Below are positions 1 to 7,676 of a stretch of DNA of 64,000 nucleotides, piece by piece. Positions within the stretch are counted from its first letter, which is position 1; each line of letters opens with the position of its first letter. The position numbers and the translations under genes were made by a program. This stretch comes from a bacterium (GTDB lineage Bacteria; Krumholzibacteriota; Krumholzibacteriia; G020349025). The stretch spans positions 3,664 through 67,663 of the forward strand of contig JANLSU010000048.1 in assembly GCA_031362565.1 (NCBI GenBank), in the 5' to 3' direction. The notes below the pieces were generated by a model. The model was not told the DNA's origin and searched no databases. It saw only the letters and a program-made list of their open reading frames with translations.

Positions 1-1957
1 GAATCGAGTTCGCGTTGGCGAACCACATCGACTTCGTTGGGCATGGCATGTGCCCCTTGCCGGTCAGGAGCTTGTTGCCGACCCGCAGCGGGTGGTCCTC
101 ATGGTTGTAGTAGTGCGCCGACTCGGCCCGCCAATACTGCTTCGGGCGCGCCGGCTTCGCCGGGTCGAGTTCCAAGTCGAACGGGTTCTCGTTGATGTAC
201 TGCGGCGCACCGTTGAAGAGTGCGACGCGGTAGTTGCCGGCATAGGAGCCGATGTTCCCGGCGATCTTGCCGACGTTGCCGGTGAGCGACGCCAGCAGGA
301 ACGTCGCCCGGTCCTTGTTGTCGCTGTTGAAGAACTGGTTCGGGCCCATGCCGATCGCAAAGAGCGTCGTTCCCGGCGCCGCCGCCAGGTGCCGCGCCAG
401 CTTCTCGACCGCAACGGCCGGCGCCCAGGTGAGTTCTTCGACCGTCTTGGGGTCGAAGTGCGCTACGTACTCGCGCACCAGATCGAAGACCGGCCGGCAG
501 CGGACCTTGCTGCCGTCCGCCAGCTGCACCTCGATCGCGCCCTCGAGGAGCGGGTCGCGAACGTTGGAGTGCTTGCCAACGTCGTCGCGGGTCAAGGCCC
601 GCGGCACACCGGCCGCGCGGTCCCACCAGACGTTGTCGCCCCACTCCTTGCGCATCGCCGCAGTCAGCAAGATATCGGTGTGGGTGCCCGGAGGTGGCGC
701 CTTCTCGCCTTCGGCGAGCACCCGCGTCTGGTTCTTGAGCACCGCCGGCGTGCCCCCAAAGACGTCCTGGGCGTGCAGCATCTTGAGCGTATCCATGCGG
801 ACGAGGAGCGGCAGATCGGTCCACTGTCGCACGTATTCGTCGTCATACAACTTCTCGCGCATGATGACGTTCGAGATCCCGAGCGCGAGCGCCGGGGTAG
901 TGCCCGGGCGAACGACGATGACCTCGTCGCCCTTGGTCGCGGTGGCCGAGTACTCGCACGCGATGACGATGACCTTGGTGCCTTTGAGTCGCGCCTCGGT
1001 CAGCCAATGCGCGTCCGGCATCTTGGTCGTGATCCAGTTCATTCCCCAGACGACGACGGTCTTGGCGAGCTCGACGGAGTTGAGGTCGAACTCGACCGTC
1101 TGCTGTCCGGTGACCATGGGATGACCGGGTGGCAGGTCCGTGTGCCACGAATAATTGTCGAAACCACGCGCCCCCAGCGCCTGGTCCGGCCCCACGCCGC
1201 GGATCTTGGCGTCGAGAAGCGCCATCGAATTCGCCATGCGATACATCCCGAAGATGCGCGTCATCCCCAAGAGCGGCATGCCGCCGCGGAACTTGAGGAC
1301 CTGCGTGCCAATGCCCTTTGTCGCCTCGATCACCGCCGGGTCGTAGTGCTGGGCCTCGAGGTACTTCTTGCCTTGCTCGCCGGTGTAGGTCGTGGCGATG
1401 TTGACGAGCGCGCTGGCGACGATGCTCGCCGCTTCATCGTGGGTCATGCGCAGCCATTCGTCGCGCGCCCGATTGAAGTACTCGAGTGGCGGGCGGCCGT
1501 CGGCGCCGCGCGGGAATCCGGCGTCGACCCAGCGTTTGAAGCCGGCGCGTACCATGCAATGCCGCACCCGCCGGTCGCCGTAGAAGCGCCGGGTGAGTGC
1601 CAGGCCCTTCTGACAGACACGCGGGTCCCAGCGATGTGACGCACCGTTGCCGTCCTGGTCGGTCGCTTCGCCGTAACGCATGCTTGGACCGATGCGGGTC
1701 ACGACACCCGAGCGCACGTGCGCCTTGAGCAAGCAGTTGTGCGTGTCATTCGGGGCGCACAAAAAATGGAACGTCGAATCCGGGTGAAAGAGATCGCGAT
1801 ACGTGCGCTCCCAATCGCGATTCGGATAGAAGGCCAGCGGGTTTTCGATCGCCTCGAGACCCCAACCGCGCGTGGCCGAGAGCACGAACGCTCCGAACCC
1901 GGCTGCCGTCGCCCACTGCAGGAATTCGCGGCGTGTCTGCTGCCCTTCGAGATTCAT
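1..1957 (-). CDS. NarG/NxrA-like molybdopterin (bis-PGD, type II DMSO-reductase family) catalytic subunit with a twin-arginine signal. Partial: the N-terminal ~652 aa are present and the gene continues beyond the window start.
   Basis: My own minus-strand translation (absent from the ORF track because no stop lies inside the window) begins [25 protein letters not shown], a TAT motif. It continues [10 protein letters not shown]...[23 protein letters not shown]...[10 protein letters not shown]...[35 protein letters not shown]. This aligns with E. coli NarG segments [73 protein letters not shown]. A GGAGG sits 7 nt upstream of the ATG at 1957, and that ATG overlaps the stop of the upstream cytochrome c gene (ATGA). 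Confidence 0.8.
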
Positions 1958-5697: not shown

Positions 5698-7676
5698 GCC
5701 GGTACCCTCCAAGTCACGTTGAACTGCACGCGCTCCATGCTGATGGCATCCACCGGACAGCGCATGGCACAGAGCGCGCAACGAATGCAGCGTTCTTCGT
5801 CCTTCAAGATGGCGGCGTTTGCGGCGAGATCGGCATCGGCGCCGAGCGCGTGACCGATTGCGGCCTGTAGATCGTTTGTCGGCTCGAGGTCGGTGAGCGG
5901 CACGATCTTGAGGCAGAGCGTCGGACAAACGTCGACGCAACCGCCGCAGAGCACACAGCGCGTGCCGTCGAAGACCGGCGTCACTCCGCAGTCGAGACAG
6001 CGTGACGCCTCACGCTGCGCCGCGGGCGCGTCGAAGCAAATCTCGACGCTGGCGCCTGGCGTGGCGAGGCGCTCGGCGGGTTCCAGGGTCGGAATGACGG
6101 CGCGGCGAATGTTCTCGTAGCCGGTCTCGCGCCGGTAGCGTGCCAGCGGCAAGTGTGCTTCGAGGACCTCCGCGGCCAGCGCGCGGCCCATCACCTGCGC
6201 GTAGATCGAGCGCGCCGCCTTCTTCCCCGACGCCACCGCGTCAATGAGAAGCCGCGTGCCGTGTGCCAAGTCACCGGCCACGAACACGCCGGGTGCAGAA
6301 GTCGCAAGCGTCTCGGGATCGACGCGCGGCCACCCCGGCCGCATCTCGTCGATATCCTCACCGCCCGGCCGCAAGAACGTCAGATCGGGTGCCTGCCCTG
6401 TCGCGAGCAATACGGTGTCGCAGGGCACGGTGCGCTGCTCGTCGTCGTCGAACAACGGCGCGAAGCGGCGATTCTCGTCGTACACCCGTACGCAACGCCG
6501 GAACACGACGGCCCGCACTGCGGCGCCGTCGCCACGCTGAATCTCGACCGGTCCCCAACCATTCAGGCGGTCGATGCCTTCCTCATCGCCTTCCCGGATC
6601 TCGACGGTGTCGGCGGGCATCTCCTCCAACGTCTCGAGCGATGCCAGCGTGACCCGGTGCATTCCGGGCAGGCGCGCAGCAGTGCGGGCCGTGTCATAGG
6701 CCACCTGCCGGACAACCGTGCGCGCGACGTCGTACGCAACGTTGCCACCGCCGATCACGACAACGTCGTGGCCGAGTTTCAGCGCCTCGCCGAGTGCCAC
6801 CGCACGCAGAAAATCGACACCGCCGAACACGAAGGGCCCGGCCTCGCCCGGAAGGTTCAAGCCGCGCGCCTTCTTGGCGCCAACGGCAATCAGGACTGCC
6901 GCGTAGTCGCGCCGCAGTGCCGCGAAGCTCACATCACGTCCGACCGCGACGCCACAGCGGATTTCGACCCCGAGAGCCTCGATGACCGCGATCTCGTGCC
7001 GAATGAGTTCGCGCGGCAGGCGATATTCCGGCACCCCGACGTACAACATGCCGGCAGGCACGGGTTCGATTTCGAACACGACCGGCCGGAATCCGAGGAG
7101 CGCCAAGTCGTGGGCCGCGGACAATCCCGCCGGTCCGGCACCAATGATCGCCACGCGCTGGCCGTTGGCGGGCGCGAAGCGGCCTTCAACGGCGCGATGC
7201 AGAAGCGCTGCCATCTCTTCCGCATCGGCGGCGACTTCGGGGACATAGCCACGCACCGCCGCGAGGACCGCAGCGCTTGGCTGGACACTGGCACCAAACA
7301 TCTCGCAGGCGAAACGTTTGAGAGCCCGAATCGCGATCGGCTGGTCGGCGCCCAAATAGACGCCATCGGCGTCGACGCGTGGAATGGTGCCGCGCCGGCA
7401 GGCCGCTTCACACGGCGCGCCGCAGACGCGACCGCAGATCGAAGCGAACGGATTCGGGCCGCGGGCGATGAGGTACGCTTCTTCGAAGCGCCCGGCGGCG
7501 ATGGCGCGGACGTAGCCGCGCGCGTCGGTGTGGACGGGGCAAGCACGCTGGCAGGAAATGAGGTCGCGGTGGTACCCGTCGCCGGGGACCGCCACCTGCA
7601 GCCGCGAACGCCCGAAGGGGGGTTCGGGCGTGGCGGCTTTGGCTGGCGCAGCTGAGATCCCCGGCTCTGGGCTCAT
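5694..7676 (-). CDS. GltD/NfnB/PreT-like FAD- and NAD(P)-binding oxidoreductase with an N-terminal [4Fe-4S] domain and a C-terminal 2x[4Fe-4S] ferredoxin domain
   Basis: The N-terminal Cys cluster is ISCQRACPV...[14 protein letters not shown]. Two Rossmann motifs follow: [17 protein letters not shown] and [17 protein letters not shown]. The C-terminal region reads [39 protein letters not shown] sequence lies just upstream of the ATG at 7676. This is the first gene of the operon. Confidence 0.8.

Follow-up and report, generated by a model that had tools for sequence, protein, structure and literature searches.

Rieske/cytochrome b complexes that include an NAD(P) oxidoreductase are known from anammox bacteria (Kartal et al. 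2013, as summarised in PMC12954380). In Kuste4569-4574 and Kustd1480-1485 the subunit IV-like protein has five helices, the cytochrome carries six or eight haems, and the NAD(P) oxidoreductase contains four Fe-S clusters (Hauser et al. 2025, PMC12954380), and AlphaFold3 models add an extra haem b, whose ligand is an N-terminal histidine of cytochrome b, with Arg/Lys residues near its propionates (PMC12954380). In haloarchaea, a Rieske protein as well as a cytochrome b is encoded with a periplasmic nitrate reductase (pNar) in the cluster narB, narC, narG, narH, ORF7, narJ (Martinez-Espinosa et al. 2007, as set out in PMC2483277 and PMC3509893), and a Q-cycle-coupled pNar has already been proposed for these organisms (PMC2483277, PMC3509893). 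In Thermogutta terrifontis, a cultured member of Thermoguttaceae that respires nitrate, 'NarG/NarH/NarI'-TorD genes lie directly beside complex III genes (THTE_1506-1512), and a role for complex III in nitrate respiration was suggested (Elcheninov et al. 2017, PMC5673643). Here we describe an operon at the edge of a 64,000-nucleotide stretch of DNA from a bacterium of the Krumholzibacteriota (contig JANLSU010000048.1, positions 3,664 to 67,663; hereafter the window) that combines elements of these systems. The operon comprises at least eight genes, of which the first five are in the window together with a regulator. Judged by its gene content, the operon is fairly likely to encode a periplasmic nitrate reductase of the nitrite oxidoreductase (NXR) type that is fed by a Rieske/cytochrome b complex, and its probable role is nitrate respiration in bacteria that are common in soil and sludge.

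Each element of the operon has a precedent, in the anammox complexes, the haloarchaeal pNar cluster, the periplasmic NXR enzymes or the Thermogutta adjacency. The original prediction, made from the letters of the window, had noted that canonical bc1/b6f complexes are without flavoprotein and molybdoenzyme partners. It needs correcting in that the linkage of a Rieske/cytochrome b module to a NarG-type enzyme exported by the twin-arginine translocation (TAT) pathway is already described for the haloarchaeal cluster (PMC2483277, PMC3509893), and a complex III beside 'NarGHI' for Thermogutta (PMC5673643). The haloarchaeal cluster resembles the present operon in bringing a Rieske protein and a cytochrome b together with NarH, NarJ, a periplasmic cytochrome of the b type and a NarG-type enzyme that is exported by TAT, but it is without the flavoprotein and the multihaem cytochrome c, its cytochrome b is of the actinobacterial/Thermus type rather than b6-like, and its NarG, of about 980 amino acids (aa), lies outside the NXR lineage. 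An NAD(P)H-linked flavoprotein/Fe-S module is also genetically tied to a Nar-type reductase in the Nrc-Nar system of Thermus thermophilus, where an NADH dehydrogenase is encoded with narCGHJIK and Nar has a cytochrome c subunit; the proteins there are unrelated, however (NDH-2-like, with no Rieske protein or cytochrome b), and Nar faces the cytoplasm. THTE_1506-1512 of Thermogutta, we infer, are orthologous to the operon of the window; the passages of the article that concern them treat the enzyme as a cytoplasmic NarGHI and mention neither the flavoprotein, nor the heptahaem cytochrome, nor an affinity to NXR (PMC5673643). Full-text searches of the literature brought up no account of the combined flavoprotein-Rieske/cytochrome b-NXR operon or of its breadth; Ten Brink et al. 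2013 (BBA) may nevertheless mention it, as may Lücker et al. 2010 (PNAS).

A conserved gene order in many phyla

At least 591 stretches in species-representative genomes carry loci related to the operon, and the detailed counts given below come from the best 80 of these, none of which is from the window's own genome. In 55 of the 56 loci with at least 6.2 kb of upstream DNA, the flavoprotein, Rieske, cytochrome b and cytochrome c genes precede nxrA in the same order and on the same strand, L076 being the exception. The original prediction had proposed to look past the edge of the window for NarH/NxrB-, NarJ- and gamma-type genes. In related loci these are present: genes for an NxrB-like protein, an EB_dh haem-b NxrC-like protein and a NarJ-like protein follow nxrA in 59 of the 60 loci with enough downstream DNA. 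The conserved order reads flavoprotein, Rieske, cytochrome b, heptahaem cytochrome c, NxrA, NxrB, NxrC, NarJ. This order, together with a 4-nucleotide overlap of the cytochrome c and nxrA genes in 45 of 77 loci, backs the linkage of the two modules.

The operon is no rarity but is widespread. Among the best 80 loci the carriers are mostly Acidobacteriota, and the remainder include Planctomycetota, Myxococcota/Desulfobacterota, Binatia, Eisenbacteria, Zixibacteria and Limnocylindria. One carrier, Thermopirellula anaerolimosa (L091), an obligate anaerobe, is in culture, and metagenome-assembled genomes (MAGs) of Thermoguttaceae carry the operon too. Across the carrier phyla NxrA is 68-79% identical to that of the window, the closest of the best 80 being L055 (79%), and a transposase adjoins the L055 cluster. 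Together, the level of identity across phyla and the transposase suggest that the operon has spread horizontally.

The NxrC-like proteins of the related loci have a lipoprotein signal peptide and are without a transmembrane (TM) helix, and they contain conserved Met/Lys motifs that resemble the haem ligands of EB_dh proteins. An NxrC of this kind suggests that the enzyme is a periplasmic, lipid-tethered NxrABC that needs an external electron donor, such as the anchored heptahaem cytochrome of the same operon.

Each module is also found alone. NxrA relatives at about 60% identity (P0106, P0107, P0110), as well as L076, have NxrABC-NarJ without the Rieske/cytochrome b module. Conversely, distant full-length relatives of the flavoprotein (40-50% identity) stand in flavoprotein-Rieske-cytochrome b-multihaem cytochrome c clusters that contain no Mo enzyme, an example being a Nitrospirota MAG (L089) with a split cytochrome b6, the haem ci cysteine and a four-haem cytochrome. 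In the operon of the window, a mobile NAD(P)-flavoprotein Rieske/cytochrome b module has thus been fused with an NXR-type module. The separate occurrence of the modules (L089 and L090 on one side, the ~60% clade and L076 on the other) would also suit an arrangement with no physical supercomplex, in which the operon co-expresses a Rieske/cytochrome b complex that stands free and an NXR-type enzyme that is soluble or anchored by lipid, the two exchanging electrons by collision; overlapping genes, after all, speak for co-expression and not for binding. We regard this as quite unlikely, because the gene order is near-universal, the cytochrome c/nxrA overlap is kept across phyla, and the cluster contains no conserved gene for a soluble carrier. 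A physical supercomplex, a fixed stoichiometry, the bifurcation of quinol electrons to NAD(P)+ and the substrate of the Mo enzyme are all put forward here as inferences.

Variations on the cluster are seen in several of the related loci. A metagenome contig (L090, 1540-14033) has two tandem flavoprotein-Rieske-cytochrome b-pentahaem cytochrome c modules behind a cupredoxin-like gene, with no Mo enzyme, and here the module is apparently used with a copper-protein partner. In Chloracidobacterium sp. UBA7656 (L084) the order is the same, but the flavoprotein (45% identity), Rieske protein (33%), cytochrome b (52%) and cytochrome c (41%) are far more divergent than NxrA (68%), which suggests module replacement or an old split. 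A Blastocatellia/Chloracidobacterium subclade (L002, L006-L011, L060) has two extra genes in the cluster: between nxrA and nxrB lies a gene for a protein of 156 aa in which four TM helices are predicted (L002, 13409-13879), and between nxrC and narJ one for a hemerythrin-like protein of 163 aa (L002, 15865-16356).

The catalytic subunit belongs to a distinct NXR-like subgroup

When compared with all solved structures, the Mo subunit finds its best match, in an end-to-end alignment, in Kuenenia NxrA (7b04_B; E 9.7e-138, 463 bits), followed by much weaker matches to PcrA (2.6e-41, 145 bits), EbdA (6.7e-34, 120 bits) and NarG (3.7e-29, 105 bits); a full-length orthologue (P0009) scores 859 bits against Kuenenia NxrA. 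Relatedness here means this ranking of structure matches. The subunit also matches the dimethyl sulphoxide (DMSO)-reductase type II alpha family. Its TAT motif, TRREFLQ (residues 8-14), has a pair of arginines that is invariant in 64 sequences. Invariant in the same number are the ligands of the Fe-S cluster FS0 (Cys67, Asp71, Cys75 and Cys115, with Asn70 before Asp71), which align to Kuenenia CSPNDTHAC and to NarG H49/N52/C53/C57/C92, and the Mo ligand Asp274 (WHTD274LPPG), which aligns to NarG WYCD222LPPA and Kuenenia WHGD. The alignment that the original prediction had called for thus finds both the Mo-ligand Asp and the FS0 ligands kept, and the TAT-exported NarG/NxrA-like molybdoenzyme that it proposed is a genuine type II DMSO-reductase rather than a cofactor-less ActB. 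ActB, and with it alternative complex III, was rejected as an identity for the subunit on account of these ligands and the NxrA match; in addition, no Act genes were seen, and molybdenum cofactor (Moco) genes are adjacent to the operon in L091.

The Asp-containing set of FS0 ligands and the active-site residue pairs have been described for Kuenenia NXR (PMC12300631). Like the periplasmic NxrABC enzymes of Kuenenia (7B04), Nitrospira and Nitrospina, the present enzyme has a TAT-exported NxrA of about 1140 aa (about 1135-1160 aa in full-length orthologues), an Asp-ligated FS0 and an Asp as Mo ligand; its orthologues add NxrB, an EB_dh haem-b NxrC, a NarJ/TorD-like chaperone and a lysine equivalent to Kuenenia K917 (TPKYRHG), which is kept in the full-length sequences and lies beyond the part of NxrA that is in the window. 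As a whole, the Kuenenia active-site neighbourhood (Asn312, Glu527, Lys917) is not matched, the lysine alone being kept. Kuenenia Asn312 is replaced by Thr311, as in NarG, and Kuenenia Glu527 (NarG Ala542) by Met537; Ser571 stands where NarG carries His546. All three residues are invariant in the clade. Since Thr311 and Met537 replace Asn312 and Glu527 throughout, we have filed the Mo subunit, on its residues, as a putative distinct NXR-like subgroup and not as a bona fide NXR. The presence of a Rieske/cytochrome b module in the operon, together with hosts and neighbours that point to nitrate reduction, also sets it apart from the periplasmic NXR enzymes.

These replacements bear on the substrate. 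In the Zixibacteria 'NXR', three of five conserved substrate residues are reported to be absent, and Castelle et al. suggested that this homologue might be a new type of enzyme (PMC3903129). Type II DMSO-reductase enzymes are versatile, and Thr311, Met537 and Ser571, invariant in the clade, set the subunit apart from both NarG and Kuenenia NxrA; it could accordingly act on chlorate, perchlorate, selenate or a compound as yet unrecognised, the N-oxide genes nearby being incidental. We give this little probability, as the matches to PcrA, EbdA and NarG are far weaker than that to NxrA, the neighbouring families recur in 12-28 loci with Rrf2, ScdA, YwiC and Crp/Fnr tied to nitrate, nitrite or nitric oxide (NO), and such a cluster is reported as the Nar of the nitrate-respiring Thermogutta (PMC5673643).

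Neighbouring genes favour nitrate reduction over nitrite oxidation

The regulator divergent from the operon was predicted to be an Rrf2 protein of the NsrR/IscR kind. Membership of the Rrf2 family is borne out by Pfam and NCBIfam matches, but these fall below the cut-offs for IscR, RirA and NsrR, so that the narrower assignment is not retained. Three cysteines (Cys92, Cys99, Cys105) form the pattern typical of cluster-binding members. An Rrf2 gene is a recurrent partner of the operon, lying directly upstream of it in 28 related loci, where the two are mostly co-directional. Other recurrent neighbours are ScdA/YtfE (16 loci), YwiC (15), Crp/Fnr (14), DUF7009 (12) and MoaA (6); of these families, ScdA, YwiC and Crp/Fnr, like Rrf2, have ties to nitrate, nitrite or NO. 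Divergently upstream of the operon in Thermopirellula anaerolimosa lie genes for an NO reductase of the qNor type and for a fusion of Rrf2 with hemerythrin (L091, 152-3530), and a complete set of moaA, moaD, moaE, moeA, moaC/B and mobA follows narJ (L091, 16177-21034). Elsewhere the window has genes for ordinary heterotroph functions (leucine catabolism, Suf, peptidases, glycosyltransferases), and the carriers look like heterotrophs. Taken together, the neighbours, the qNor and Moco context, the Thermogutta report and the heterotroph functions favour nitrate reduction over nitrite oxidation.

The affinity of the catalytic subunit could nevertheless be read the other way. In that case the enzyme would be a nitrite oxidoreductase, the electrons of nitrite entering via NxrC and the heptahaem cytochrome c, with the Rieske/cytochrome b-flavoprotein module running in reverse or confurcating flow to quinone or NAD(P)+. 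By lineage the subunit is one of the periplasmic NXR enzymes, its FS0 has an Asp ligand, and its orthologues carry the K917-equivalent lysine; NXR enzymes are reversible (PMC12300631); and surveys leave the direction of 'NXR-like' genes in MAGs of heterotrophs open (PMC9306079; bioRxiv 2020.05.19.103440). We consider this direction improbable, however, because the carriers are mostly heterotrophic lineages, because the Crp/Fnr, ScdA, YwiC and qNor context is typical of nitrate or N-oxide respiration, because the obligate anaerobe Thermopirellula anaerolimosa has the cluster, and because Thr311 is NarG-like. By our own estimate, moreover, to confurcate nitrite and NAD(P)H electrons onto menaquinone would drain proton-motive force without any benefit.

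NXR-like genes in organisms that do not nitrify confuse the annotation of the nitrogen cycle, and published work leaves open which way they run (PMC9306079; bioRxiv 2020.05.19.103440). The operon supplies, for one large NXR-like clade, an electron-transfer partner and a context pointing to nitrate reduction. Matches to NxrA-type markers in Acidobacteriota and Planctomycetota should not be counted as nitrite oxidation.

The flavoprotein, Rieske protein, cytochrome b and heptahaem cytochrome c

Pfam and NCBIfam matches divide the flavoprotein into an N-terminal Fer4_20 Cys cluster, a Pyr_redox_2 domain and a C-terminal 2x[4Fe-4S] domain. Its best solved relatives, aligned over residues 168-500, are 9bov_A, NfnA (9n5u), StnC (8oh5_C), NfnB (5jca_L/4ylf_B) and GltD, and both dinucleotide motifs are retained. 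Among 51 orthologues there are seventeen invariant cysteines (42, 46, 81, 85, 89, 93, 560, 563, 574, 577, 580, 584, 588, 630, 633, 636 and 640), and 98% of the orthologues also have Cys124; the C-terminal 2x[4Fe-4S] domain has three extra conserved cysteines. The cluster thus encodes a flavoprotein with about four Fe-S clusters, as the anammox clusters do. No signal peptide and no real TM helix are predicted in the protein. It is predicted to be a cytoplasmic, NAD(P)-linked Fe-S protein with an FAD and NAD(P)H domain of the NfnB/GltD/StnC type, and the GltD-like NAD(P)-flavoprotein of the original prediction accordingly keeps its FAD/NAD(P)H-binding domain.

The Rieske protein, identified by its Pfam match, contains all the motifs that had been read from the sequence: the boxes CTHLGC and CPCHGSRF ('SF' type) and the twin-arginine motif RRDFL. 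The cluster ligands are invariant in 48 orthologues, and residues 24-42 form one predicted TM anchor. Among solved structures the Kuenenia Rieske protein 9rk4_A (E 8.5e-16) ranks first, only marginally above Rieske proteins of the b6f complex.

Cytochrome b consists of a four-helix b6-like part fused to a five-helix subunit IV-like part, with nine predicted TM helices in all. In NCBIfam the N-terminal part is ExtP-like and the C-terminal part ExtQ-like, and the best solved matches are cytochromes b6. The haem ligands are His126/140/239/254, and APWYF stands in place of PEWY. The haem ci cysteine is absent, Gly75 aligning to Cys35 of b6, and the histidine of a bc1-type Qi site is replaced by arginine; in the alignment to b6 and in the pattern of conservation, no recognisable Qi site was seen in the protein. 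On the n-side, His57 (100%), His59 (98%) and His64 (100%) are conserved among 51 sequences, as is an RK motif (R259-K260) after helix D, and the HLH motif is shared with the distant flavoprotein-linked cytochromes b of L089 and L090. The 51 orthologues also share His113 (96%) and, without exception, His319 and the C-terminal His522 (both 100%); these three could be extra haem or metal ligands.

The 7x CxxCH cytochrome was also read correctly. Its seven motifs, at residues 71, 106, 143, 170, 264, 380 and 485, are all invariant in 58 orthologues, and Pfam and NCBIfam matches show an N-terminal part that is c7/c3-like and binds four haems, with three cytochrome c domains of class I behind it. The protein is membrane-anchored.

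The resemblance to the anammox complexes that the original prediction had pointed out is real. Both have a Rieske protein, a b6-like cytochrome b and five-helix subunit IV-like part, a multihaem cytochrome c in the place of cytochrome f/c1, and a cytoplasmic GltD/NfnB-like flavoprotein that has several Fe-S clusters. Both also have a high-potential periplasmic enzyme in the cluster, which is the HAO-like Kuste4574 in the one case and the NXR-type enzyme in the other. His57/59/64 and R259-K260 may correspond to the site modelled for the extra anammox haem (Kuste4571 His43, Kustd1481 His62), the comparison being with the published description; the likeness of cytochrome b and flavoprotein to those of Kuenenia in general is likewise to published descriptions. 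The operon differs in that cytochrome b and the subunit IV-like part form one polypeptide without the haem ci cysteine (the Nitrospirota locus L089 has a split gene and the cysteine), in having seven haems rather than six or eight, in its Mo-enzyme partner and in its heterotroph-like hosts.

A possible route of electrons

The full model, in which a menaquinol-oxidising Rieske/cytochrome b complex of the b6 type is wired to an NXR-type nitrate reductase and also reduces NAD(P)+, is put forward tentatively, as the likeliest of the readings but somewhat less than an even prospect. Quinol would be oxidised at the Qo site. The high-potential electron would pass from the Rieske protein to the heptahaem cytochrome c, and from there via the haem b of NxrC and the Fe-S clusters of NxrB to the Mo of NxrA, where nitrate would be reduced on the outer face of the membrane. 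The low-potential electron would cross the membrane via haems bL and bH, possibly also by way of a further haem on the n-side that the conserved HxH and RK motifs would hold, and would reach the Fe-S chain and FAD of the cytoplasmic flavoprotein, where NAD(P)+ would be reduced. This would be quinone-based bifurcation of the kind proposed for the anammox complexes Kuste4569-74 and Kustd1480-85. Rrf2, or Crp/Fnr in other genomes, would switch the operon on under anoxic, N-oxide conditions.

Cytochrome b provides the reason for preferring electron output to NAD(P)H input. The lack of the haem ci cysteine on an otherwise b6-like n-side leaves no recognisable Qi site, which counts against a normal Q cycle, although the inference from this to output is weak and input is a strong rival. 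As an electron input, the flavoprotein would let NAD(P)H reduce the n-side haems or a Qi quinone, in the manner of a non-pumping dehydrogenase, while an ordinary Q cycle feeds the nitrate reductase in a 'respirasome'. Its relatives GltD and dihydropyrimidine dehydrogenase take NADPH as a donor, and the energetics would be comfortably downhill and would suit heterotrophs. Ferredoxin-NADP+ reductase (FNR) bound at the n-side of b6f in cyclic electron flow is a precedent for NAD(P)H input, and the nitrate-specific Nrc NADH dehydrogenase of Thermus thermophilus is another. We still hold input to be unlikely, because the haem ci cysteine is missing and the bc1-type Qi histidine is an arginine; with no Qi site, incoming electrons would short-circuit the Qo reaction and dissipate the membrane potential. 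The same module occurs, furthermore, in Nitrospirota and in anammox bacteria, where the production of NAD(P)H is the argued need.

Several points nevertheless weigh against the operon being a bifurcating complex that feeds a nitrate reductase. For transcription, complex formation, activity and direction alike, the case is built from genes. The differences of Thr311, Met537 and Ser571 from the reference enzymes leave nitrate a probable rather than a certain substrate. The 'SF' type of Rieske protein has a predicted potential of +200-230 mV (PMC3509893), below the ~+300 mV on which the anammox argument relies; the Kustd1480 Rieske protein, however, which is of an S-non-Y type without the Tyr, was measured at +335 mV (PMC12954380). 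Cytochrome b is fused and without haem ci, unlike that of the anammox complexes. A heterotroph, moreover, has no obvious need for NAD(P)H from quinol, and by our estimate the recycling of such NAD(P)H via complex I would, with the proton-motive force at its full value, be of marginal feasibility thermodynamically. Quinone-based bifurcation to NAD(P)+, hitherto a hypothesis for anammox bacteria only, may be general among many common heterotrophs (Acidobacteriota, Planctomycetota, Myxococcota and others), though we put this at clearly less than even odds.

If bifurcation does occur, the large difference in potential between menaquinol and periplasmic nitrate would cover the cost of raising a second electron to NAD(P)H, and nitrate respiration would gain a new energy-coupling site, carried on a horizontally mobile eight-gene operon. 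In any case, the flavoprotein-bearing Rieske/cytochrome b complex is a widespread module that is found here with a defined high-potential partner. A cultured carrier outside the anammox bacteria (Thermopirellula anaerolimosa, and probably Thermogutta) makes NAD(P)H production by bifurcation testable outside slow-growing anammox enrichments.

Operon layout and the divergent intergenic region

The coordinates of the operon, the regulator and other features of the window are listed in Table 1. On re-reading, the five minus-strand genes are chained exactly as had been claimed, with ATGA overlaps at 5694-5697 (flavoprotein/Rieske), 5203-5206 (Rieske/cytochrome b) and 1954-1957 (cytochrome c/Mo subunit) and a 1-nucleotide gap between the gene for cytochrome b and that for cytochrome c (TGAcATG at 3634-3640); Pfam and NCBIfam matches agree with each of the gene identities. 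In related loci, besides the cytochrome c/nxrA overlap, a 4-nucleotide overlap is found at 29 of 60 flavoprotein/Rieske junctions and 37 of 62 Rieske/cytochrome b junctions, and the cytochrome b/cytochrome c gap is 10 nucleotides or less in 46 of 66, all these counts depending on heuristic start calls. The tight junctions are kept across related loci, and so are not a peculiarity of the window.

Table 1. Positions of the operon, its regulator and other features in the window
Feature	Position	Strand	Length	Remark
Mo subunit gene	1..1957	(-)	652 aa	N-terminal part; continues beyond the window edge
Cytochrome c gene	1954..3636	(-)	560 aa	
Cytochrome b gene	3638..5206	(-)	522 aa	
Rieske gene	5203..5697	(-)	164 aa	
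Flavoprotein gene	5694..7676	(-)	660 aa	First gene of the operon
Intergenic region	7677..7894			Divergent, operon/Rrf2
Rrf2-family regulator gene	7895..8341	(+)	148 aa	Divergent from the operon
Segmental duplication	8392-9700 / 10155-11470		about 1.77 kb	
HMG-CoA lyase-like gene	8723-9682			Looks N-terminally truncated
Open reading frame	9447-10082		211 aa	No Pfam match
HMG-CoA lyase-like gene	10494-11708			Complete
Big_1/Big_2 protein	17693-19183			
Large secreted-looking protein	19092-22076			Ends in FlgD_ig-like domains
PreA/dihydropyrimidine-dehydrogenase-like protein	25457-26854			DHO_dh + Fer4_21
Large secreted-looking protein	37946-40102			Ends in FlgD_ig-like domains

A consensus scan for terminator-like sites inside the operon found none above chance, which is weak evidence either way. 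The same kind of scan gave one sigma-70-like promoter site just 5' of the flavoprotein gene (7738-7710, minus strand), where chance predicts one too. About 15 bp upstream of its -35-like hexamer lies a perfect AT-rich 6-1-6 palindrome, TATTTTAAAAATA (7752-7764). Among 56 related loci the palindrome does not recur upstream of the operon, and for this reason we make no claim for TATTTTAAAAATA as an operator. Past position 1, an exact 50-mer of the window start matched nothing in metagenome_contigs, and an exact look-up of the cytochrome c protein gave only a Logan contig of 7.7 kb, whose end comes before that of the window.

Other features of the window

Beyond the regulator, the segmental duplication (300 nucleotides at 91% identity plus an 80-nucleotide repeat at 84%) gives two HMG-CoA lyase-like genes. 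The downstream copy is complete, and the upstream one matches profile positions 74-258 only; a small open reading frame lies between them. Two large secreted-looking proteins end in FlgD_ig-like domains, and these, along with the Big_1/Big_2 protein, may be useful taxonomic or cell-surface markers. SufB is uninformative for taxonomic placement, its matches at 83-88% identity belonging to both Acidobacteriota and Planctomycetota.

A further gene encodes a PreA/dihydropyrimidine-dehydrogenase-like protein that is apparently unrelated to the operon. Members of this family normally pair with a GltD-like subunit, and the gene points to a second GltD-partner system in the genome.

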